This document shows positions 2,925 to 10,879 of a stretch of 11,255 bases of DNA, piece after piece; position 1 is the first letter of the stretch; each line of letters starts with the position of its first letter. Source of the stretch: a virus (Duplodnaviria; Heunggongvirae; Uroviricota; Caudoviricetes); the IMG/VR virus record IMGVR_UViG_2541047875_000011, positions 1 to 11,255 of that record. One strand, given 5' to 3'. Under the pieces are notes generated by a model. It made no database searches. It worked only from the letters and a program-made list of their open reading frames with translations, and was not told where the DNA came from. Position numbers and translations under genes: made by a program.

Positions 2925-2934
2925 TGGGGTGAAT

Positions 2935-5289
2935 ATGGCAGTAAAGATTTCAGGTGTACTGAAAGATGGTGCAGGTAAGCCGGTACAAAACTGCACTATT
3001 CAACTGAAAGCCAGACGTAACAGCACCACGGTGGTGGTGAACACGGTGGCCTCAGAAAATCCGGATGAAGCAGGTCGTTACAGCATGGATGTTGAGTACG
3101 GTCAGTACAGCGTCAGTCTGTTGGTGGAGGGGTTCCCGCCGTCACATGCCGGGACCATCACCGTCTATGAAGATTCCCGACCCGGTACGCTGAATGATTT
3201 TCTCGGTGCCATGACGGAGGATGATGCCCGTCCGGAGGCACTGCGGCGTTTTGAACTGATGGTGGAAGAAGCGGCACGTAACGCTGAAGCCGCCTCTAAG
3301 AGCGCAGCGGCGGCAAAGAAATCCGAAACTGCAGCGGCATCATCGAAGAACGCGGCGAAAACCTCAGAAACGAATGCAGCTAATAGTGCACAGGCGGCAG
3401 CGACCTCACAGACTGCATCAGCAAACTCCGCGACAGCAGCCAAAAAATCAGAAACCAACGCGAAAAACAGCGAGACAGCCGCAAAGACGAGTGAAACTAA
3501 CGCAAAGTCCAGCCAGACGGCAGCGAAGACCAGCGAAACGAATGCCAAAGCCAGTGAAACTGCGGCGAAAAGCAGTCAGGATGCAGCAGCCGAAAGCGAG
3601 AGTGCTGCAGCCGGTTCTGCGACTTCAGCAGCTGGATCAGCAACTGCTGCGGCTAACAGCCAGAAAGCCGCGAAGACGAGCGAAACTAACGCAAAGTCCA
3701 GCCAGACGGCAGCGAAGACCAGCGAAACGAATGCCAAAGCCAGCGAAACTGCGGCGAAAAACAGTCAGGATGCAGCAGCCCAAAGCGAGAGTGCCGCAGC
3801 TGGTTCTGCAACAGCGGCAGCTAATAGCCAAAAAGCTGCAAAAACCAGTGAAACTAACGCAAAGACGAGTGAAACAAAAGCAGCAGCCAGCGAGACAGAA
3901 GCAACGTCAGCCGCAACAAGAGCAGAGAATGCAGCCCGGATTGCAGAAGATGCCGCTGATCCTGCTTCTGTCCCTCCGCTTCCTGATATCTGGCTACCCT
4001 TGAATGATTCTCTGGAAGCGATAACAGGGTATGCCCCGGGCTATAAAACAATAACCATCGGCAGTGATGAAATAACAATGCCTGTTAATGGCATATGCCA
4101 ATTTAGCCGGGCTTCATCTGCAACGTATATTGATAAGTCCGGGCATATTACCGTGGCAGGGAATAACGTTCCTCGTTTTGAAAAATATGGTTTGCTGATA
4201 GAGAATCAGCGAACAAACATGTTCGTAAATAGTTTTAATCCTGATGCCTGGAATAAAAGCGGTGGTATATCTGTAACATCATCAACAGATGAATTTGAGT
4301 TTAAATATGGACGTTTCACGGTAGGAAGCGATATAGCAGGAACGACAACAGGGCGAAATATATGCACAGTTGCTGGTAACAAAGGCATAGATGTGACTGG
4401 CGATGATCAGTACAGTAAAGGTCCGTATGTTACCGCGTCGTTCAGGGTAAGAAGTGATCTCAATGTTCGCGCACGTATCCGTTTTGAACGGTATAACTCG
4501 GAAGGATACACCTTCCTTTGCGACGCCTATTTGTCATTACAGACCCATGAACTACAAATTACTGGTGGCAATGCCCAGCTATTAACAGCAAACTTTGAAA
4601 TCGATCCAGGTAGTGGATGGATATATTTTCAGGCAACACTGAAATGTCTGCCAGAATGGGGAATGGTTGGTACGCAGCTGCAAATTGCAGCCGACAGAGC
4701 AGTGGGGGCTTTTGCAACAGGTGACTGGATAGAAGTAACCACCCCGCAATTCGAGTATGGTGCCTGTGCAACTTCCTTTATCATAACGACAACAGAGCCA
4801 GCGACTCGTGCATCAGATTTATGTAAATTTCCGCTGATGAAAAATATGTATACCATGCCTTTTACGTTCATGGTGGAAGTCCATAAAAACTGGTTTATTT
4901 CTCATAATGCTGCACCGCGTGTCATTGATTCAGAAAATCACCAGTCCGGAGGCCCATTTATTATGGGGTTTGGTTCTTCTGGAACTATCAGTCAGGATGG
5001 TTATTCGTATTGCGATATAGGCGGGGCTAACCGGCGTGTATATGAGTCATGCGGAGTAAGAGATCTCGTTATGGGATTCAGGGTTAAGGCTGACGGCATG
5101 ACATGCTCATTTGCAAATAAGAATATAAGCACTGAAACCAAAACAGTATGGAAATATATTCGTGAAGCAGCCGTGATTCGTATCGGGGGGCAAACGACGA
5201 CAGGATTACGACACCTTAATGGTCATATAAAAAACCTCCGTTTCTGGAACAGAGCATTGTCAGATACGCAGATTAAGGAATACGTATAA
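2935..5289 (+). CDS. stf: Side tail fibre protein, mosaic: lambda Stf-like N-terminal anchor, Ala/Ser/Thr/Lys repeat shaft, and a divergent low-GC C-terminal module ending in a LamG/ConA-like motif
   Basis: The track ORF starts at GTG 2929, but ATG 2935 gives MAVKISGVLKDGAGKPVQNCTIQLKA, matching the lambda/Rac Stf N-terminus, with SD GGGGTG upstream. The middle has KTSETNAKSSQTAAK-type repeats as in StfR. After ~3955 the sequence is unrelated and AT-richer, ending ...LNGHIKNLRFWNRALSDTQIKEYV, which resembles the last strand of LamG-type jelly-roll domains. Stop TAA at 5287-5289. Confidence 0.85.
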   Translation: MAVKISGVLKDGAGKPVQNCTIQLKARRNSTTVVVNTVASENPDEAGRYSMDVEYGQYSVSLLVEGFPPSHAGTITVYEDSRPGTLNDFLGAMTEDDARPEALRRFELMVEEAARNAEAASKSAAAAKKSETAAASSKNAAKTSETNAANSAQAAATSQTASANSATAAKKSETNAKNSETAAKTSETNAKSSQTAAKTSETNAKASETAAKSSQDAAAESESAAAGSATSAAGSATAAANSQKAAKTSETNAKSSQTAAKTSETNAKASETAAKNSQDAAAQSESAAAGSATAAANSQKAAKTSETNAKTSETKAAASETEATSAATRAENAARIAEDAADPASVPPLPDIWLPLNDSLEAITGYAPGYKTITIGSDEITMPVNGICQFSRASSATYIDKSGHITVAGNNVPRFEKYGLLIENQRTNMFVNSFNPDAWNKSGGISVTSSTDEFEFKYGRFTVGSDIAGTTTGRNICTVAGNKGIDVTGDDQYSKGPYVTASFRVRSDLNVRARIRFERYNSEGYTFLCDAYLSLQTHELQITGGNAQLLTANFEIDPGSGWIYFQATLKCLPEWGMVGTQLQIAADRAVGAFATGDWIEVTTPQFEYGACATSFIITTTEPATRASDLCKFPLMKNMYTMPFTFMVEVHKNWFISHNAAPRVIDSENHQSGGPFIMGFGSSGTISQDGYSYCDIGGANRRVYESCGVRDLVMGFRVKADGMTCSFANKNISTETKTVWKYIREAAVIRIGGQTTTGLRHLNGHIKNLRFWNRALSDTQIKEYV
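3478..3865 (+). repeat. Tandem direct repeat (~189 bp and ~168 bp units, about 2 copies plus degenerate shorter units) inside the stf shaft region
   Basis: The string GAAACTAACGCAAAGTCCAGCCAGACGGCAGCGAAGACCAGCGAAACGAATGCCAAAGCCAG occurs near 3493 and again near 3682 with few mismatches; copy 2 lacks a 21-nt segment. Degenerate 15-18-nt units (AAxACxAGxGAAAC) extend over about 3290-3900. Confidence 0.8.
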
Positions 5290-5558
5290 TGCGGGATATA
5301 ACATTACGATTCGATAACAGAGAACAGTTTAACGCAATTGTATATGACAGTGGCCTGTTCAGTCTTGAAGAAGAAAATGGGATTCTTGTTGATGTTATTG
5401 GCGGCATTATTGATTACGAGGAGCCAGAAAACGAAAGATGTACAGGCATTGATCGCGGTGGTTTTTTCGTAAACATGAGGATTGTTGATGGCAGTAAAAA
5501 CATATCTTCTTTAATGCCTTTCATTACGACAGATCAGCATGTAAGGACATGGGCTTAA
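5289..5558 (+). CDS. Small acidic hypothetical protein (89 aa), translationally coupled to stf; possible fibre-associated chaperone or accessory protein
   Basis: ATG 5289-5291 overlaps the stf stop as TAATG. SD-like AAGGAA at 5275-5280. Low-GC and acidic (many D/E). Function is inferred from position only. Confidence 0.5.
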   Translation: MRDITLRFDNREQFNAIVYDSGLFSLEEENGILVDVIGGIIDYEEPENERCTGIDRGGFFVNMRIVDGSKNISSLMPFITTDQHVRTWA

Positions 5559-5684
5559 TGGAGCTTGCTTGTTCAGGTAGCCAGAGAATCAGACGACAGA
5601 ATAACAGCACTGGAAGAAGAAAACGCAGAATTAAGACAAAGATTATCTGCAATTGAGGCGGCGCTTGCGTCTGAATAATATTAA

Positions 5685-5707
5685 GGGGCCGAGCGCCCCG
5701 TTTTATT
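5685..5707 (+). terminator. Candidate rho-independent terminator
   Basis: Stem GGGGC (5685-5689) / GCCCC (5695-5699), loop CGAGC, then GTTTTATT. Confidence 0.55.
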
Positions 5708-5720
5708 GGGTAGGATGAAA

Positions 5721-6014
5721 ATGGATATAACACCTTTCCTTCATGCACTTTGTGCTGTGGCTGCGCAGGTACTGATTGGCCTTTTTACCGGAAACTGGGT
5801 TTACGGTGCGATAGCTGGTTGTACGTTCTTCATTGCGCGGGAACACACCCAGGCAGAATATCGCTGGATTGAAATGTTCGGGCATGGCAAGCGAATGAAT
5901 ATGCCGTGGTGGGGCGGTTTTGATCCGCGTGCTTGGGATGTGGCAAGCCTGATGGATTTTGCTGTGCCGGTGGTGGCGTGTCTGCTGGTCTGGCTGTTGG
6001 TTAATCGTGGGTGA
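5721..6014 (+). CDS. Hypothetical small membrane protein (~97 aa, two predicted transmembrane helices); moron-like
   Basis: ATG 5721 with AGGA 5 nt upstream (the track extends it to TTG 5706). Two hydrophobic stretches, FLHALCAVAAQVLIGLFTGNWVYGAIAGCTFFIA and SLMDFAVPVVACLLVWLLV. Preceded by a terminator and a possible sigma70 promoter (TTGAGG 5653-5658, 17-bp spacer, TAATAT 5676-5681). Confidence 0.55.
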   Translation: MDITPFLHALCAVAAQVLIGLFTGNWVYGAIAGCTFFIAREHTQAEYRWIEMFGHGKRMNMPWWGGFDPRAWDVASLMDFAVPVVACLLVWLLVNRG

Positions 6015-6024
6015 AAAAAGGTGA

Positions 6025-6146
6025 GCTGTATATGCAACGGAGGAAGAAACCCCGTTGCTGGCGGCATGGAAGAAGTATCGGGTGCTGCTCAACCGAACTA
6101 TACATCAGTAGCTCCGGACATTGAGTGGCCTGTACAACCGGAATAA
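6025..6146 (+). pseudogene. tfa: Remnant of the 3' end of a tail fibre assembly gene (tfa), frameshifted; N-terminal ~150 codons absent
   Basis: Frame 1 (6025-6111) reads AVYATEEETPLLAAWKKYRVLLNRTIHQ*, matching the conserved lambda Tfa C-terminal motif ...EETSLLEAWKKYRVLLNRVD. Frame 3 (6093-6146) then reads PNYTSVAPDIEWPVQPE*, matching Tfa ...TSTAPDIEWPAVPVME*. A 1-nt frame change lies near 6096-6099. No upstream tfa reading frame exists. Confidence 0.65.
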
Positions 6147-6168
6147 ATATCAGGAGGAGTAATTAATC

Positions 6169-7304
6169 GTGTCGACTCTGATTTCCGGCGTATTAAAAGA
6201 TGGTGCAGGTATACCGCTGGCTGCCAGATTATCCTGAAATCCCGTGTAAACACCTCAGATGTGGTGATGTCTGTTGTTGCGCATATTGTAACCGGGCAAA
6301 ACGGGGAATATGCGTTTGAGGCCCGGACGGGGAAGTACAGCGTTTATCTGAAGACTGACTGGCGTAATGAGTTTCAGGTTGGTGTTATTTCTGTTTATGA
6401 GGACTCACAACCGGGCACACTGAACGACTTCCTGATAGCAGTGAGTGATGCTGATTTGAAGCCGGACGTTCTGCGGCGGTTCGATGAGCTGGCGAGGCGT
6501 GTCCATGAAGACGCGAACAGCGCAGAACAGTTTGCCGGAGATGCCCGTCGTGCTGTGGATGAACTGGGCGGTAAGGTTCAGGACGATATTCGTGACCGTA
6601 CACCGGACCGTCTGGCTCTGCCCGGTGCTTACGGCTTCGGCGGAATATTCAGCCGCTCGGAAGCTCTGTCGTTTCAGGGGGTATCTGATTTTGGTGCGTG
6701 GCTACAGAAAGCCACGCCGGGGCGTTATCCGGTCACTGTTGCGGATTCTTCTGCATTGCTGTTGGGCACCACGAAATTTAACGGCAACATTGATGTGCTG
6801 TGGTCACCCTTTGATAACGACGGGTCGGACACAGCGCACAAATTCAAAACGCTGTTGTGTTACAACGAGCCACGTGCCGGAGAGCACGGGCTACACCTGC
6901 TCCAGTACTGGTACGAGGGCGACAACCTGCGGGTTGCGGGCAGTATGATAGTCTGCGACGCTCCGTCGCTGGCGACACTGCTGTCAGCAACAGCGGGAGC
7001 GGACCCGTCAGGGTTCTACCGTTATCCGGCGGTGGGTTCCCTGTTGCTGGCAGCGTACCACGGGGCATCTGCCGGTGCTGGCGGGGTGAGTATTGCAACA
7101 GGCGACGTTGTTCCGGGCTCCTGTCTGGGGCCGGTGAGTATTCCGTGCGCGGTGAACGAAGGCGGCACAACTCCGTCGCCGCTGCGGGCGTTTGTTGGTG
7201 GTGCCGGACAGTACAATTTCCCCGGACGTTACCAGGCGTTATCCGGTGCAAATAATGTCCGTGGAAACAATGGGTTTATCTGTCTGTTTGTGCGCGTTGA
7301 GTAG
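6169..7304 (+). pseudogene. Second side tail fibre gene with a frameshift in the N-terminal anchor region; likely decayed, or expressed from an internal start
   Basis: SD AGGAGG (6152-6157). A GTG at 6169 opens frame 1, giving VSTLISGVLKDGAGIPLA and then a stop at 6235-6237; this parallels Stf MAVKISGVLKDGAGKPV. Frame 3 continues ...CQIILKSRVNTSDVV... (parallel to CTIQLKARRNSTTVV) through to TAG at 7302-7304. It also contains a shared VYEDSQPGTLNDFL motif. The frame change is near 6219-6225, with no homopolymer or slippery heptamer. Confidence 0.6.
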
Positions 7305-7311
7305 GTGAGAA

Positions 7312-7905
7312 ATGAACGCAGTAAAAGATATTCGCAATCCGGTGCATCTCGGAAACGGCGCGGTTGACTGTGAGGTGCTGTTTGAGGGGCGCAGCGAGTA
7401 CGTTGTTTATACGGCTGCGCCGGGCGACGCAGCCCCGACAGGTCAGCGTATCTGGCAGGAACTACAGAGCGGCAAATGGGGCGAAATTGCCCCGTTCACG
7501 GCCACGCCGGAACTGATAGCGGCGGCGAAGGATGCAAAACGTCAGGAAATTGAGGTGTGGCGTACCGAACAGGAAGCGCAGTCGTTCACGTTTGAGTGGA
7601 ACGGTCGAACCTGGAACGCGGGGCCGTCCTCACTGGCCCGGCTCACGCCTGCGATTACGGCGGCGGAATACGCCGGCGAGCAGGCTGTTACCTGGAGCGA
7701 TACAACCAACGAGCCGGTAAACCTGACAGTGCAGGAACTGAAATCGCTGGCCGTCGCACTGGCTCAGGCACTCTCTGAGCGGAACAACGCGATTTATCGT
7801 CGCCAGCGGGAGATGAAGGATACGTTAAACACCCTGGAGAATCTGGCAGAGGTGCAGGCGTTTAAGGTTGGAGAACAATCTATATTGGGGGTAAGCCGTA
7901 TTTAG
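7312..7905 (+). CDS. Hypothetical protein (197 aa) immediately downstream of the second fibre gene; possible fibre assembly or chaperone-like protein, family not confidently recognised
   Basis: ATG 7312 with SD GGTGAG 4-5 nt upstream. Its C-terminus lacks the Tfa LL.EAW..YRVLLNRVD motif, so it is not a classical Tfa. The assignment is positional. Confidence 0.45.
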
Positions 7906-8209
7906 CTCTTGCGCGGTTACACGCCTCATTGACGACGCCGTTCTCGCCAGACATGGCGAATTCTCTGCATGTGGATGATCGATTTTCATATATCGTGCAG
8001 CAGGCATTTTTGCCCGGAGTTCCAGCAAGGGCAACACATCTGGGGTTTTTCTGGTTTGTACCGATCATGCATCGGTGAAAAGGCGATACTTGTTCAGTAA
8101 GTCTGGCGGGAATGGTGCCGCCGGCATCGTCGGCTTCGGCCCAGTAAAAAGAGACGCGGAAAAATGCACAACAGGCGCCACACGTCATGCATGGATTCAG
8201 ATTGCTCAT
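7880..8209 (-). CDS. YkgJ-family Cys-cluster protein (CxxCxxCC putative zinc/iron-chelating domain), 109 aa
   Basis: N-terminus [21 protein letters not shown] contains C-x2-C-x2-CC, plus further C-terminal cysteines. Its 3' end overlaps the convergent ORF 7312-7905 by 26 bp. Confidence 0.65.
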
Positions 8210-8241
8210 AATTCACCAGTACAGCTATAAATCATAAAGAA

Positions 8242-8278
8242 AACAGCGGTACGTCGTATGAAAGAACTTACCGCTGTT
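8242..8278 (-). terminator. Candidate stem-loop / terminator downstream of the dinI-like gene on the minus strand
   Basis: 10-bp inverted repeat AACAGCGGTA (8242-8251) / TACCGCTGTT (8269-8278) with a 17-nt loop. On the minus strand it is followed by TTCTTTAT. An outer inverted repeat TTCACCAG (8212-8219) / CTGGTGAA (8281-8288) flanks it. Confidence 0.3.
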
Positions 8279-8345
8279 GGCTGGTGAACTTTTCGATAGT
8301 GCGAGTATTGAATGATTTCCAGCCGTTACCGATTTTACTCGTTAA

Positions 8346-8594
8346 TTAGCGAACAAACCACTCGTCAGCAGACTCCCAGGTATCTTTCAGCGTCTCCTGA
8401 ACAAAAGTTTTTGCAGAATCTTTATCGGCGGTGCGAGTAACTGAAAGGCCATCGTTGCTGGTGGCTTTTATGATCACTTCTACATCGTCATAACGCTTAC
8501 TGATGCGTCGGGTTAATTCTTCCTTTAACGCATCCACAGCACCGTTTGGCATTTTAGTCATTTTTTCTTTGGCTATGCAGATCTCAATACGCAT
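8346..8594 (-). CDS. DinI-like protein (DinI family, SOS-induced RecA modulator homologue), 82 aa
   Basis: [31 protein letters not shown]...[11 protein letters not shown] resembles E. coli DinI (MRIEVTIAK ... ETWESADDWF). SD GAGGGA upstream; tandem LexA boxes in the promoter region. Confidence 0.8.
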
Positions 8595-8607
8595 AAAAGT
8601 CCCTCTA

Positions 8608-8627
8608 TACTGTGTTTGTATACAGTA
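8608..8627. promoter_or_regulatory. LexA (SOS) box 1 upstream of the dinI-like gene
   Basis: TACTGTGTTTGTATACAGTA is a perfect match to the TACTGT-N8-ACAGTA consensus, 14 bp upstream of the dinI-like start codon. Confidence 0.8.
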
Positions 8628-8635
8628 TTATTTTT

Positions 8636-8655
8636 AACTGTATGGATAAACAGTG
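8636..8655. promoter_or_regulatory. LexA (SOS) box 2, abutting the integrase stop codon
   Basis: AACTGTATGGATAAACAGTG contains CTGT-N8-ACAG, 8 bp from box 1 and directly adjacent to the integrase stop at 8656-8658. Confidence 0.65.
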
Positions 8656-9753
8656 TCAAGAGGTCTTATTTCTGCTCCTTTGGAGCTCTTCAAAACGATT
8701 ATGTAAAGATTTCGGATACAGTTCAGTATATACCTGCCATAGCACGTTTAATGAACGATGCCCTGTGACCTGGGCGACTTCCTCAATACTAAAACCAGCC
8801 TCAAATAAGCGACTTGCCCCTTCTCTACGCAAATCATGGTATCGCAGATCCTTAATACCTAATTTGCTTCTTACCCTCTGAAATCCCGCAGTAACAGAAG
8901 TGCTGTTATATGGAAAAATGAATTCCGATTTTTTGGGCTGTCGTTGGACGATATCCCAGGCTTCCCCAAGCAAGGCTACTTTCATGTGGTTGCCTTCCTT
9001 TTTGCGTGGATCTTTCCTGTCTCTTACGAGTATAGATTTTTGTTCCTGGTCGAGATCTTCCCATCGTAACCGGCATACTTCTCCGATCCGCATACAGGAC
9101 CACACAGAAAATTTGAGGATATCAACGAACGGAATTTTTGAGCATTTATGAGTAGATCGTTGTTGAAGGCCTTCAATGAGCATGTCCAGTTCATCAGATG
9201 CTGGTCTACGATTACGACGGTTTGATTTACCAATCAAACCAAGTTTAAGTAGATATGGGCGAGCGCTTTTCGCCGGGTTTGATGTGTAATTAATTCCGTA
9301 TACAGGTTTGGCCGCATCCAGAACACTGCCAAGATAACTAACATCGTGGCTGACTGTTGCTGGACCTGCACCAGCGTTGTTTCTTAGCCTGCAATGTTCA
9401 ATTACGTCATTTTCTGTCAGTTCAGATAGTTTGATCGCGGAGATGTCACTATCCATAAGCAGTTCCAGCACATATCTTTTAGTACGGCCTGCTTTACCTC
9501 CGGCATTTGGGTCATTTAAATATTTGTGTAGTAAGTCACGGACTGTAAGTCCGTCAACTGCATTTGATGATGGAATGCCATATAGATCTAATTCCATCAC
9601 TTTCTGTGTTCCCCATGTTTTGGCATGAGCATGTTTAGGGAATGTTTTGCTTTCCCTGTAAGTGATAACACCTTTTTCTTTGATAATCACATTACAGCGA
9701 TAGCGTGGTGTGCCATCGGATTTTAGTCGTTTCTCTATGTTATAGTACGCCAT
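8656..9753 (-). CDS. int: Prophage tyrosine integrase (site-specific recombinase, dusA-targeting type by context)
   Basis: 365-aa ORF with a C-terminal catalytic region carrying H-x-x-R (YHDLRREGASRL) and the tyrosine nucleophile (LWQVYTELY). SD GAGG 7 nt upstream on the minus strand. Divergent from dusA and only 88 bp from it. Confidence 0.9.
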   Translation of the reverse strand: MAYYNIEKRLKSDGTPRYRCNVIIKEKGVITYRESKTFPKHAHAKTWGTQKVMELDLYGIPSSNAVDGLTVRDLLHKYLNDPNAGGKAGRTKRYVLELLMDSDISAIKLSELTENDVIEHCRLRNNAGAGPATVSHDVSYLGSVLDAAKPVYGINYTSNPAKSARPYLLKLGLIGKSNRRNRRPASDELDMLIEGLQQRSTHKCSKIPFVDILKFSVWSCMRIGEVCRLRWEDLDQEQKSILVRDRKDPRKKEGNHMKVALLGEAWDIVQRQPKKSEFIFPYNSTSVTAGFQRVRSKLGIKDLRYHDLRREGASRLFEAGFSIEEVAQVTGHRSLNVLWQVYTELYPKSLHNRFEELQRSRNKTS

Positions 9754-9772
9754 TACACGACCTCGTTATTTC

Positions 9773-9808
9773 GGGTTCCCATAAAACGTGGGAACCTGTG
9801 CGGGAACC
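9773..9808. promoter_or_regulatory. Repeat cluster in the int-dusA intergenic region: candidate integrase arm-type sites or operator
   Basis: Inverted repeat GGTTCCCA (9774-9781) / TGGGAACC (9789-9796) with a 7-nt loop, plus a further direct copy of GGGAACC at 9802-9808. Confidence 0.4.
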
Positions 9809-9841
9809 TAACGCGAGAAAAATAGCCTGAAATGTTCAAAA

Positions 9842-10879
9842 ATGCACGATAATCATGAAACACAAAAAATTAATCAAACCAGCGTGATGCCTGAAAAAAC
9901 TGGTGTTTACTGGAATTCTCGGTTTAGCATTGCTCCTATGCTTGACTGGACGGACAGACATTGCCGTTATTTCTTGCGTCTGCTTTCCCGCAATACGTTG
10001 TTGTATACCGAAATGGTGACCACAGGGGCGATTATTCACGGTAAAGGTGATTACCTGGCGTACAGTGAAGAAGAACATCCGGTAGCGTTGCAACTCGGGG
10101 GTAGCGATCCGGCGGCGCTGGCACAGTGTGCGAAGCTGGCAGAAGCGCGTGGATATGATGAGATCAACCTGAATGTCGGCTGCCCGTCTGACCGGGTGCA
10201 GAACGGCATGTTTGGTGCGTGTCTGATGGGTAATGCGCAGCTGGTTGCCGACTGCGTGAAAGCGATGCGCGATGTGGTGTCGATTCCGGTGACGGTGAAA
10301 ACGCGTATTGGCATCGATGATCAGGACAGCTATGAATTTCTCTGCGATTTCATCAACACCGTTTCCGGCAAAGGTGAGTGTGAGATGTTCATCATCCACG
10401 CACGTAAAGCCTGGCTTTCTGGGTTAAGTCCGAAAGAAAACCGTGAGATCCCGCCTCTCGATTATCCGCGTGTGTATCAACTGAAGCGTGACTTTCCGCA
10501 TCTGACGATGTCGATTAACGGTGGTATCAAGTCGCTGGAAGAAGCTAAAGCGCATTTGCAACATATGGATGGCGTGATGGTCGGGCGCGAGGCGTATCAG
10601 AATCCGGGTATTCTGGCGGCGGTAGACCGAGAGATTTTTGGTTCCTCGGATACCGATGCCGATCCGGTGGCGGTAGTGCGCGCCATGTATCCGTACATTG
10701 AGCGTGAACTCAGCCAGGGTACGTATCTCGGCCATATTACCCGGCATATGCTGGGCTTGTTCCAGGGTATTCCTGGCGCGCGGCAGTGGCGGCGTTATTT
10801 AAGTGAAAATGCCCATAAAGCGGGTGCAGACATTAATGTGCTGGAACACGCGCTCAAACTGGTGGCGGATAAGCGTTAA
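9842..10879 (+). CDS. dusA: tRNA-dihydrouridine(20/20a) synthase DusA
   Basis: 345-aa ORF with the Dus family TIM-barrel signature ([33 protein letters not shown], catalytic Cys region). It matches E. coli DusA essentially along its full length as I recall it. An alternative start at ATG 9887 (MPEKTG...) would give 330 aa. Confidence 0.93.

Follow-up and report, generated by a model that had tools for sequence, protein, structure and literature searches.

An accessory side-tail-fibre cassette with a frameshifted, probably inactive fibre gene in a lambda-like prophage of Escherichia coli

Why does a lambda-like prophage carry two tail-fibre modules in tandem, the second of which has its N-terminal anchor domain split between two reading frames? 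This arrangement occurs in a stretch of viral DNA of 11,255 nucleotides (the window; IMG/VR record IMGVR_UViG_2541047875_000011). An earlier note, made from the sequence alone, proposed two explanations for the second fibre gene (here stf2): a decaying relic, or a gene expressed from an internal ATG and lacking the segment that attaches the fibre to the tail. Our analysis identifies the relic as the better of these two options. The region 6147-7905 is most probably an accessory side-tail-fibre cassette in which, within this lineage of prophages, the fibre gene has become a pseudogene and the chaperone has been orphaned. The cassette represents an ordinary passenger undergoing decay within a mosaic lambda-like prophage of E. 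coli, not a new system. The features of the locus are listed in Table 1.

Table 1. Features of the two fibre modules and of their surroundings (positions in the window)
Feature	Position	Strand	Remarks
stf1, primary side tail fibre	2929-5289	+	uninterrupted 786-codon ORF; PF08400, E 3.7e-70
89-aa ORF, first module	5289-5558	+	
114-bp 3' remnant of a 346-aa 'tail fiber domain' gene	~5565-5678	+	result of a 933-bp deletion
Terminator-like hairpin	5685-5699		upstream of the 97/98-aa ORF
97/98-aa ORF	5721-6014	+	
tfa (Caudo_TAP) 3' remnant, last ~37 codons	6034-6146	+	incomplete Tfa ORF
Overlap of two homology blocks	6126-6147		left block ends at 6147, right block begins at 6126
stf2 Shine-Dalgarno sequence, AGGAGG	6152-6157	+	11 nt 5' of GTG 6169; the same in the intact homologue
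stf2 5' fragment	6169-6237	+	GTG start, 22 codons (MSTLISGVLKDGAGIPLAARLS), stop TGA 6235-6237
Site of 4-bp deletion (GGCG or equivalent)	6218/6219	+	relative to the intact allele; flanked by short GGC repeats
Rest of stf2	6222-7304	+	shifted frame; stop TAG 7302-7304
stf2 collar, residues 20-94	6222-6446	+	shifted frame
stf2 short helical linker	~6447-6578	+	
stf2 C-terminal receptor-binding domain	~6579-7301	+	~240 residues
DUF4376 gene	7312-7905	+	197 aa, intact; SD-like AGGTGAG upstream; 7 nt after the stf2 stop
YkgJ-family Cys-cluster ORF	7880-8209	-	overlaps the DUF4376 3' end by 26 nt
dinI-like	8346-8594	-	
Integrase gene	8656-9753		3' end is where the shared block stops (8662)
dusA	9842-10879		adjoins the integrase gene

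Composition of the two fibre modules

The two stacked fibre modules described in the earlier note were also recognized here, as the stf1 module followed by stf2 and a DUF4376 gene. The stf1 gene matches phrog_1419 over its full length, and its product shares 766 of 785 residues with the intact protein WP_001516233.1 of strain 582. It combines a lambda-type PF08400 collar, 92% identical to lambda StfN, with a shaft of Ala/Ser/Thr-rich repeats (21-nt and 189-nt repeats in the DNA). The parts lying between 5289 and 6014 were defined from the annotation of A24, 582 and FDAARGOS_497, from phrog_1361 and phrog_1443, and from the deletion junction. In a promoter and terminator scan of positions 5200-8700 the hairpin preceding the 97/98-aa ORF was the sole standout, and nothing above the shuffled expectation was found between tfa and stf2. 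Comparison of the tfa remnant with a related one revealed a 1-nt deletion near 6094-6100, which parts ...EEETPLLAAWKKYRVLLNR from the terminal sequence ...TSVAPDIEWPVQPE and its stop.

Directly 3' of this remnant lie the strong Shine-Dalgarno sequence (6152-6157) and the second fibre gene (GTG 6169), as had been reported. The N-terminus of the latter had been likened to the Stf anchor, and matches in Pfam and PDB bear this out: the joined halves match PF08400 ('Prophage tail fibre N-terminal') over positions 1-131 of 134 (E 4.9e-52) as well as the N-domain of lambda Stf (PDB 9e7m, E 3.5e-20), and the repaired domain is 48% identical to lambda StfN. In stf2 this complete PF08400 domain exists at the DNA level only, when the two frames are joined. 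For the intact homologue, AF2 predicted a six-stranded antiparallel beta-sheet (residues 2-8, 21-29, 33-42, 48-54, 56-63 and 70-77) and a helix (86-89), as in Ur-lambda gpStfN, with pLDDT values of 62-90 per 10-residue block; the model was matched by Foldseek to 9e7m_Ta with a TM of 0.84 (E 7e-7). In Ur-lambda, StfN forms a 12-copy collar ring around the gpV/gpM junction (PMC12617516); docking of this kind is known from lambda only.

Between the collar and the tip, stf2 encodes approximately 45 residues, with two helices predicted by AF2 at a pLDDT below 50, and the PF03406 repeat shaft of the 654-aa relatives is missing. The C-terminal domain matches tail fibres of phrog_2636 (positions 328-568, E 2.9e-101) and is shared with hundreds of annotated prophage fibres. 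The AF2 confidence for this receptor-binding domain was only low to moderate (pLDDT 50-77), and a PDB fold search with the fibre model gave no match beyond the N-domain.

The tightly spaced 197-aa ORF noticed previously behind the fibre gene lies at the expected position (Table 1). Its product matches PF14301 at residues 71-176 (61.2 bits, cut-off 25) and phrog_1141 (E 5e-78), and its structural matches in BFVD are all DUF4376 proteins. Searches of PDB yielded no match with the sequence and nothing significant with the modelled fold. The model weakly resembled the beta subunit of prefoldin (E 0.06-0.3; TM 0.5-0.57 for the target), a similarity that is not relied on here. Proteins of the DUF4376 family were shown experimentally to be tail-fibre chaperones, and in Alteromonas phages such a protein is required if the receptor-binding protein is to mature (PMC7289586, PMC10579305). 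A role in fibre folding or trimerisation, with absence of the chaperone from the finished complex, was demonstrated for the Alteromonas phages only. On the basis of family membership and gene order, the 197-aa protein is presumed to be an intermolecular chaperone of the stf2 receptor-binding domain. Moreover, N-termini of the Stf, J and P2 types are all found followed by this domain in company with the DUF4376 gene.

In the second module a collar domain is joined by a very short shaft to a receptor-binding domain of a distinct kind, and DUF4376 takes the place of Tfa as the chaperone. The module is a different cassette and not a copy of the first. A 37-nt direct repeat of 84% identity occurs at the 5' ends of both fibre genes (2946-2982 and 6180-6216).

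The presence of two side-by-side modules with different receptor-binding ends is reminiscent of alternative host-range cassettes that are used via DNA inversion (the Mu G segment, the P1 C segment and e14). The resemblance to Mu G, P1 C and e14 Pin extends to the side-by-side position of alternative receptor-binding modules that each possess an assembly gene. However, the modules of this prophage are co-directional, and the sole recombinase encoded in the window is the tyrosine integrase adjoining dusA. An invertase gene was found neither in the window nor among the annotated genes of the 46-kb prophage of strain A24. There are also no sizeable flanking inverted repeats; the longest (35 nt at 71%) is placed inside the stf1 repeats. 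The invertible cassette was rejected on these grounds, and we assign it next to no probability.

The stf2 lesion and its age

Alignment with intact homologues, which had been proposed as a check, placed the split between frames at a 4-bp deletion. An intact homologue (P0001; 379 aa, 96% amino acid identity) is in frame, as is a second intact relative of the same length (P0124, 379 aa). The intact allele at the deletion site is CTGGCGGGCTG, and in the alignment the intact CCGCTGGCGGGCTGCCAG is replaced in stf2 by CCGCT----GGCTGCCAG. The deletion shifts the gene to the -1 frame (frame 3 of the earlier note), and the reading frame leading from the start codon through the collar to the receptor-binding domain is interrupted by the stop at 6235-6237. 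The 5' fragment corresponds to collar strand beta1 and is out of frame beyond it.

Apart from this single deletion, stf2 bears no signs of further decay. The downstream frame is open from 6171, reads ...GCQIILKSRVNTSDVVMSVV... and contains 347 codons from GTG 6261 or 345 codons from ATG 6267. The remainder of the gene is intact and GC-rich, as claimed before, with 55-65% GC over positions 6350-7850 versus 40-47% over 4000-5750. The dN/dS ratio of stf2 versus the intact homologue is 0.14-0.24, a low value because the history of selection predates the lesion. For the diverged 5' 250 nt of the gene, no closer source was found among 5,426 complete E. coli genomes, where the next best match reached 73.7%.

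The earlier note had kept open the possibility that the frameshift is an error of sequencing or assembly and that stf2 is truly intact. Nothing beyond this general possibility speaks for such an error. Eight complete E. coli genomes, obtained from different hosts by different laboratories, have the lesion without a single base difference, and so do 10 further assemblies. The eight genomes share one sequence over the 5' end of stf2 (6147-6430). The 10 assemblies, which differ elsewhere by up to 2.3%, all have the same 75 nt running from GTG 6169 across the deletion. Furthermore, sequencing platforms do not typically err by dropping 4 bp outside a homopolymer. The truncated protein appears in the index of 251 collection blocks and on 141-168 contigs. 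Since independent assemblies agree base for base, sequencing error was rejected, its probability being negligible, and the caveat can be dropped. Both frame lesions, in stf2 and in tfa, are real, which favours the decay argued for earlier, and are fixed across the eight complete genomes and the 10 assemblies.

The relative age of the lesions is indicated by a sister prophage (L021). Upstream it has a lambda-like Stf of another kind, accompanied by a Tfa of full length, yet the same two lesions are present; the same tfa sequence forms the end of its 180-aa Tfa, already with the deletion (...LLNRTIHQ and stop). Because L021 shares both lesions in combination with a different first module, they are older than the first module now present.

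It might also be supposed that the two frames of stf2 are joined by programmed ribosomal frameshifting or switched by slipped-strand mispairing, i.e. phase variation. The deletion does sit in a short GGC(G)GGC repeat, and a 373-aa protein (P0133; MSTL-KRWCRYTAG-CQIILKS...) looks like the result of a second, 14-nt deletion restoring the frame. The latter protein, however, is known from one 1,961-bp contig, all assemblies of the lineage are in the same OFF state, and the loss of 4 bp between repeats of 3 bp is not easily undone. As regards recoding, the earlier observation that no slippery sequence accompanies the split holds: the overlap has neither an X XXY YYZ heptamer nor a long homopolymer, the upstream ORF lacks such a heptamer and its sole homopolymer run is AAAA at 6195, and the intact P0001 and P0124 are simply in frame. 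With no slippery heptamer and with homologues in frame, the programmed frameshift was rejected; for recoding and phase variation taken together we see only a very slight chance. Fixed decay is the reading retained below.

Origin and distribution of the cassette

The block extending from the tfa 3' end through stf2, the DUF4376 gene and the ykgJ-like gene to dinI (6126-8662) matches the right end of a contractile-tail prophage (L004) at 96.8% identity. That prophage has a Mu-type baseplate, and there too the stf2 and DUF4376 pair is located behind a fibre gene and Tfa. The left block, which matches two other prophages (L002 and L003) up to 6147, is common to lambdoids at the DLP12 site. As the left and right homology blocks overlap at 6126-6147, the conserved tfa 3' end is likely to be the recombination joint. 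For the direction in which the block moved, from myovirus to lambdoid or the other way round, and for the exact position of the crossover, the block boundaries are our only guide.

The order fibre, Tfa, PF08400 fibre and DUF4376 was also found in phiP27, E. coli W, SC418, C311 and Rac-SA53. In addition, a P2-like prophage has the fibre/DUF4376 pair after gpD, and GB089 encodes a fusion of the receptor-binding domain with J. The usual place of the cassette, as judged from these contexts, is behind a fibre gene and Tfa at the end of contractile-tail prophages. Phage GenBank records gave only distant matches (70-73%; phiP27, Rac-SA53, SerU-LTIIb).

In a census of viral contigs, 25 of the 27 copies situated after Tfa in contractile-tail contexts were intact. 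All three DUF4376-type second fibres in lambdoid contigs were frameshifted, at different codons, these counts being small and the samples non-independent. Frameshifted fibres of the stf2 kind made up 11/47 in the census of prophage contigs. One lambdoid (L098) has two intact PF08400 fibres.

These data may point to a more general role, which we consider possible though rather doubtful. The locus would be one example of a promiscuous terminal accessory-fibre cassette, with or without dinI, that moves among Mu-type, P2-type and lambda-type prophages via the tfa 3' end. Its collar would act as a general ring-binding adaptor (at the neck in some myoviruses, as in XM1 gp40, and at gpV/gpM in lambda), and the cassette would be redundant or mismatched, and hence decaying, in lambdoids that have their own Stf.

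Consequences of the lesion and comparison with known systems

The most probable history of the cassette as a decaying passenger can be outlined as follows. In its intact form it would encode a 379-aa fibre (a collar, a helical linker of about 45 residues and a receptor-binding domain of about 240 residues) together with the DUF4376 chaperone, which would fold or trimerise the receptor-binding domain. The block from the tfa 3' end to dinI is probably a portable unit, normally located at the extreme end of prophages behind the primary fibre and Tfa, and is likely to have joined a dusA-integrated lambdoid by homologous recombination within the tfa 3' end. The 4-bp deletion between GGC repeats at codon 18/19, itself directly observed, arose in the common ancestor of the lineage. 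Translation initiated at GTG 6169 now ends after 22 codons, and the full-length fibre would not be made. As the downstream ORF has no Shine-Dalgarno sequence, there would be at most weak re-initiation at GTG 6261 or ATG 6267. A product initiated at ATG 6267 would lack beta1-beta2 of the six-stranded collar and should be unable to join the collar. The intact chaperone gene would be left without a client, and the phage would rely on J and possibly on stf1, like laboratory lambda without its frameshifted stf.

Alternatively, the truncated fibre of 345-347 aa (from ATG 6267 or GTG 6261) might be made and used as a free trimeric receptor-binding protein off the virion; folded with the DUF4376 chaperone, it might, for instance, block a receptor of the lysogen or leave the cell when this lyses. 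All 345 codons, as well as all 197 chaperone codons, are open in every assembly seen, PGAP calls ATG 6267-7304 as a normal gene (345 aa, WP_021549950.1), and the candidate starts lie 24-30 nt beyond the end of the 22-codon ORF, so that re-initiation, which is possible in bacteria, is conceivable. Against this, neither 6261 nor 6267 is preceded by a Shine-Dalgarno sequence, and a free-fibre function is not known for the family of stf2. The low dN/dS is explained by the history before the lesion, and polymorphism within the lineage is almost nil, which is too low to reveal selection after the lesion. The proportion of frameshifted genes in the prophage-contig census is the pattern expected of decay. 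We therefore regard a functional truncated fibre as improbable, and the pseudogene as the preferred interpretation.

The locus matters mostly for annotation. In RefSeq, WP_021549950.1 is entered as intact under the name 'prophage tail fiber N-terminal domain-containing protein'; it is the product of the 3' part of a frameshifted 379-codon gene. It should be treated as a pseudogene in host-range prediction and in the engineering of fibres derived from prophages. The receptor-binding domain of stf2 and its DUF4376 chaperone are still an undamaged, portable pair. The locus also provides a clear worked example of fibre-cassette exchange between siphovirus-type and myovirus-type prophages through the tfa 3' end, and illustrates the dispensability of side fibres in lambda-like phages. 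Neither modular exchange nor this dispensability is new in principle.

Among known systems, the ends of phiP27 (L54-L57), E. coli W and Rac-SA53 (tail1-tail4) have the same order of fibre, Tfa, PF08400 fibre and DUF4376 at the extreme end of the prophage, and their receptor-binding domain and DUF4376 gene are homologous to those described here (67-73% nucleotide identity). These prophages have tails of the baseplate J/gp47 type and carry second fibres that are intact and, at 490-1061 aa, longer, whereas in the present case the host is a lambda-like siphovirus and the fibre gene is frameshifted. A DUF4376 protein is likewise encoded directly 3' of the fibre gene in the Alteromonas phages V22 (gp26/gp27) and A5 (gp8/gp9); this is a distant relationship, confined to the Pfam domain, in which hosts and fibre folds differ. 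In contrast to Mu G, P1 C and e14 Pin, the modules of this locus have the same direction and are accompanied by neither an invertase nor inverted repeats.

The collar of stf2 also resembles the N-terminal Ig-like domain (~100 residues) of gp40 of the Vibrio myophage XM1 (24% identity; phmmer E 0.013; Foldseek E 9e-6, TM 0.61). The XM1 domain anchors trimers to a ring-shaped site of the virion (PMC10457771). This site, however, is at the neck (gp4/gp5) and not at the tail tip.

The lambda Stf/Tfa system offers a collar of the same type (PF08400, with the six-strand-plus-helix fold), and stf2 is likewise situated behind J and lom in a lambda-like tail cluster. The Stf protein of lambda has 774 aa. 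Compared with it, and with most relatives (654 aa), the shaft of the 379-aa fibre is nearly absent. The gp37-like tip of lambda Stf is unrelated to the stf2 receptor-binding domain, the partner of stf2 is a DUF4376 protein instead of a Caudo_TAP Tfa, and within its prophage stf2 is the second fibre with a PF08400 domain. The fate of the two fibres is nevertheless similar: in lambda PaPa a frameshift abolishes the side fibre and J is kept (PMC12617516), and the stf2 fibre would also be abolished by a frameshift.

A second fibre gene inactivated by a 4-bp deletion

The window corresponds to the right end of an Escherichia coli lambda-like prophage integrated beside dusA. Over its full length of 11,255 bases it is 100% identical to contig KE701378.1 (assembly GCA_000459835.1), and it is 99.5% identical to strain A24, whose prophage is a lambdoid element of about 46 kb placed between zur and dusA. 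The tyrosine integrase directly abuts the 5' end of dusA, with the tail-fibre genes on its opposite side (window 8656-10879; also the A24 prophage, L008). The latter prophage also carries iss and at least two more frameshifted genes (an adenine methyltransferase gene and a hypothetical gene).

Features of the prophage right end
Feature	Coordinates	Strand	Remarks
J (3' part)	25-2208
lom	2276-2875
stf1	2929-5289		first side tail fibre gene; uninterrupted 786-codon ORF
89-aa ORF	5289-5558
fibre gene remnant	~5565-5678		114 bp
97/98-aa ORF	5721-6014		phrog_1443, function unknown
tfa 3' remnant	6034-6146
stf2	6169-7304		second fibre gene
DUF4376 gene	7312-7905		197-aa ORF
ykgJ-like ORF	7880-8209	(-)	YkgJ-family Cys-cluster PF03692, 109 aa
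dinI-like	8346-8594	(-)
integrase	8656-9753	(-)	tyrosine integrase
dusA	9842-10879

The earlier note had described, behind a strong AGGAGG, a second fibre gene split between two frames with no slippery sequence, in a high-GC module ending in a tightly spaced 197-aa ORF; our analysis confirmed each of these points. The AGGAGG (6152-6157) precedes a GTG start at 6169, the upstream frame reads MSTLISGVLKDGAGIPLAARLS up to TGA 6235-6237, and the -1 frame goes on as GCQIILKSRVNTSDVV... to TAG 7302-7304. The upstream ORF contains no slippery heptamer, AAAA at 6195 being its only homopolymer run. GC content across the second module is 55-65%, and the 197-aa ORF begins 7 nt past stf2. A database search identified P0001, an intact 379-aa homologue (96% identity), and DNA alignment with its locus revealed that 4 bp are missing from the window at 6218/6219 (intact allele CCGCTGGCGGGCTGCCAG, window CCGCTGGCTGCCAG). 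This deletion, which sits between short GGC repeats, is the sole indel of the 1,140-bp gene.

Sequencing error, the caveat attached to the frame lesions in the earlier note, is ruled out, since the same deletion recurs in independent assemblies. In eight complete genomes (human, armadillo and beluga isolates), a 284-nt stretch surrounding the deletion is 100% identical, and all 10 further assemblies retrieved through exact protein identity carry the identical deleted sequence. In other regions the divergence of these 10 from the window reaches 2.3%, and they represent at least three chromosomal contexts beyond qorA. Within the collection, 251 blocks index the truncated protein, which occurs on 141-168 contigs (depending on the start call), versus three for intact 379-aa forms. 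The lesion is thus real and fixed within the lineage. Further stops or indels are absent from stf2 on comparison with L004, a contractile-tail prophage, and diversity within the lineage is very low.

The N-terminus parallels the Stf anchor, as had been proposed. Once joined, the halves span the entire PF08400 profile of Pfam (E 4.9e-52), and the solved N-domain of lambda Stf (PDB 9e7m) aligns with the repaired N-terminus over its residues 1-93 (E 3.5e-20). Residues 1-90 of the intact homologue were modelled with AlphaFold2 as six beta-strands and a helix (pLDDT 62-90 per 10-residue block); in a Foldseek search this collar domain matched the Ur-lambda Stf collar 9e7m_Ta (TM 0.84, E 7e-7) and, in second place, the XM1 collar spike N-domain 7kjk_A3 (TM 0.61, E 9e-6). 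The 4-bp deletion lies in this domain and inactivates stf2. Expression from an internal ATG at 6267 had been considered; this codon is residue 35 of the repaired protein, within strand beta3, so that the model predicts a product devoid of beta1 and beta2, and no Shine-Dalgarno sequence lies ahead of it. We infer that a truncated product would be unable to dock and that stf2 is probably unexpressed.

The 5' ends of stf1 (2946-2982) and stf2 (6180-6216) form a 37-nt direct repeat (84% identity, 3,234 nt apart), whose right copy stops 2 nt ahead of the deletion; recombination between them could lead to loss of the first module or to chimeric fibres. In addition, P0133, a 373-aa variant that clusters with the stf2 product and lies on a 1,961-bp Logan contig (possibly an assembly artefact), starts with MSTL-KRWCRYTAG-CQIILKS..., as expected from a second, 14-nt deletion (window 6181-6194). 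Such a deletion would restore the frame at the cost of nine scrambled and six missing residues in strand beta1.

Mosaic origin and age of the lesions

Judged from its homology blocks, the window is a mosaic. The left block (to 6147) matches the DLP12-site lambdoid prophages L002 and L003 at 93-95%, and the right block (6126-8662) matches the right end of L004 at 96.8%, the two overlapping by 22 bp at the end of tfa. L004, which carries sheath, tube, Mu gp45/46 and baseplate J genes, contains a fibre gene, a Tfa gene, an intact stf2 and DUF4376 pair, and then dinI. Its YkgJ-like protein is identical to that of the window, and the gene therefore moves with the cassette; in the window this ORF is convergent with the DUF4376 gene and covers its final 26 nt.

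The first module was damaged too, since a 933-bp deletion in the window lineage (5552-5680 versus L002 6364-7297) removed from the incoming module a gene for a 346-aa “tail fiber domain-containing protein”, of which about 38 last codons are left. Related prophages, namely those of strains 582 and FDAARGOS_497 and IMG/VR locus L098, have this gene between the 89-aa and 98-aa ORFs. A terminator-like GC-rich hairpin with a T-run (5685-5699) lies upstream of the 97/98-aa ORF, whose hydrophobic stretches would fit a small membrane protein; the ORF is possibly a moron that entered between the fibre genes. The stf1 protein is identical to an intact RefSeq protein at 766 of 785 residues. In strain A24, PGAP annotates stf1 as two partial pseudogenes despite the open 786-codon ORF, probably owing to its Ala/Ser/Thr-rich region (repeats 3290-3920; 21-nt units, a 189-nt tandem duplication and AT skew of up to 0.68).

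Two independent frame lesions had been taken as a sign of real decay, and both are also present in L021, a sister prophage at dusA. From 6033 onward it is 99.2% identical to the window, with the same 4-bp deletion; upstream it encodes a lambda-like Stf of 1,008 aa (PF08400, Gp34_trimer, Collar) together with a Tfa that is full-length at 180 aa (9303-9845). This Tfa already has the 1-nt deletion of the tfa remnant (window 6034-6146), which swaps its last ~16 residues for TIHQ (...LLNRTIHQ*). As L021 combines both lesions with a different first module, they predate the replacement of that module in the window, and the 1-nt lesion, found in an otherwise full-length Tfa, is older than the tfa truncation.

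Divergence from L004 shows past purifying selection: dS and dN/dS are 0.48 and 0.14 for stf2 codons 1-85, 0.045 and 0.24 for codons 86-379, and 0.029 and 0.16 for DUF4376. The tenfold higher dS marks the collar-domain segment as a separately exchanged allele.

A portable fibre cassette and its relatives

The interpretation of two stacked fibre modules was upheld, the second being a portable accessory-fibre cassette with a putative DUF4376 chaperone, and not a duplicate of the first. Most relatives have about 654 aa, with PF03406 shaft repeats; the linker of stf2 and P0001 comprises only ~45 residues, hence a stubby fibre. Residues ~140-379, the receptor-binding domain (AlphaFold2 model only moderately good), match phrog_2636 tail fibres over the C-terminal third of the latter (E 2.9e-101). 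The 197-aa protein clearly belongs to DUF4376 (61.2 bits, cut-off 25) and also matched phrog_1141. Its model (pLDDT 83.5) resembled only other viral DUF4376 proteins, and PDB searches with sequence and model gave no significant match. Family membership and gene order point to a chaperone of the stf2 fibre; in Alteromonas phages V22 and A5, the fibre chaperones are DUF4376 proteins encoded right behind the fibre gene (PMC7289586, PMC10579305).

A census of 77 IMG/VR loci yielded 47 PF08400 fibres with DUF4376 downstream. Intact and disrupted copies numbered 30 and 2 in baseplate-J and P2-like contigs (25 of the 30 immediately downstream of Tfa), 3 and 5 in J/Lom (siphovirus) contigs, and 3 and 4 where the tail type was not recognised (the 9 copies listed for this context all sit right behind a Tfa). 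Disruption is therefore far commoner in J/Lom (5/8) than in contractile-tail contigs (2/32; Fisher p 0.0015, the loci not being independent). The three lambdoid DUF4376-type second fibres (window lineage, L052, L061) are each frameshifted at a different codon. A tandem of Stf genes is not unstable in itself, as the lambdoid L098 has two intact PF08400 fibres. Frameshifted fibres of this type are frequent (11/47 loci; L052, L053, L055, also L061, L073, L083, L100, L029 and L056), and in three loci the frame of a 422-aa type of fibre is broken at the same point, codon 303/304.

The order fibre, Tfa, PF08400 fibre, DUF4376, prophage end recurs in phiP27 (L54-L57), E. coli W, SC418, C311 and Rac-SA53, and the fibre/DUF4376 pair also lies downstream of gpD in one P2-like prophage. 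In strain GB089, an stf2-type receptor-binding domain is fused to the J protein, with DUF4376 and dinI downstream; the domain and its presumed chaperone are therefore also used on a central tail fibre. The 1,375-aa fusion (L012 2593-7307) joins the J N-terminal domains FNIII-A_GpJ, Phage-tail_3 and Ig_J to a PF03406 repeat and the domain homologous to that of stf2. These comparisons bear out the mosaic boundaries, domain identities and recurrent gene order, and suggest that the cassette was joined via the tfa 3' end.

All families at this locus are already known, and the locus is annotated in RefSeq, where the stf2 pseudogene appears as an intact protein of 345 aa. In Ur-lambda, twelve Stf collar domains ring the gpV/gpM junction and bear four trimeric fibres, and laboratory lambda is devoid of side fibres as a result of a frameshift in stf (PMC12617516).
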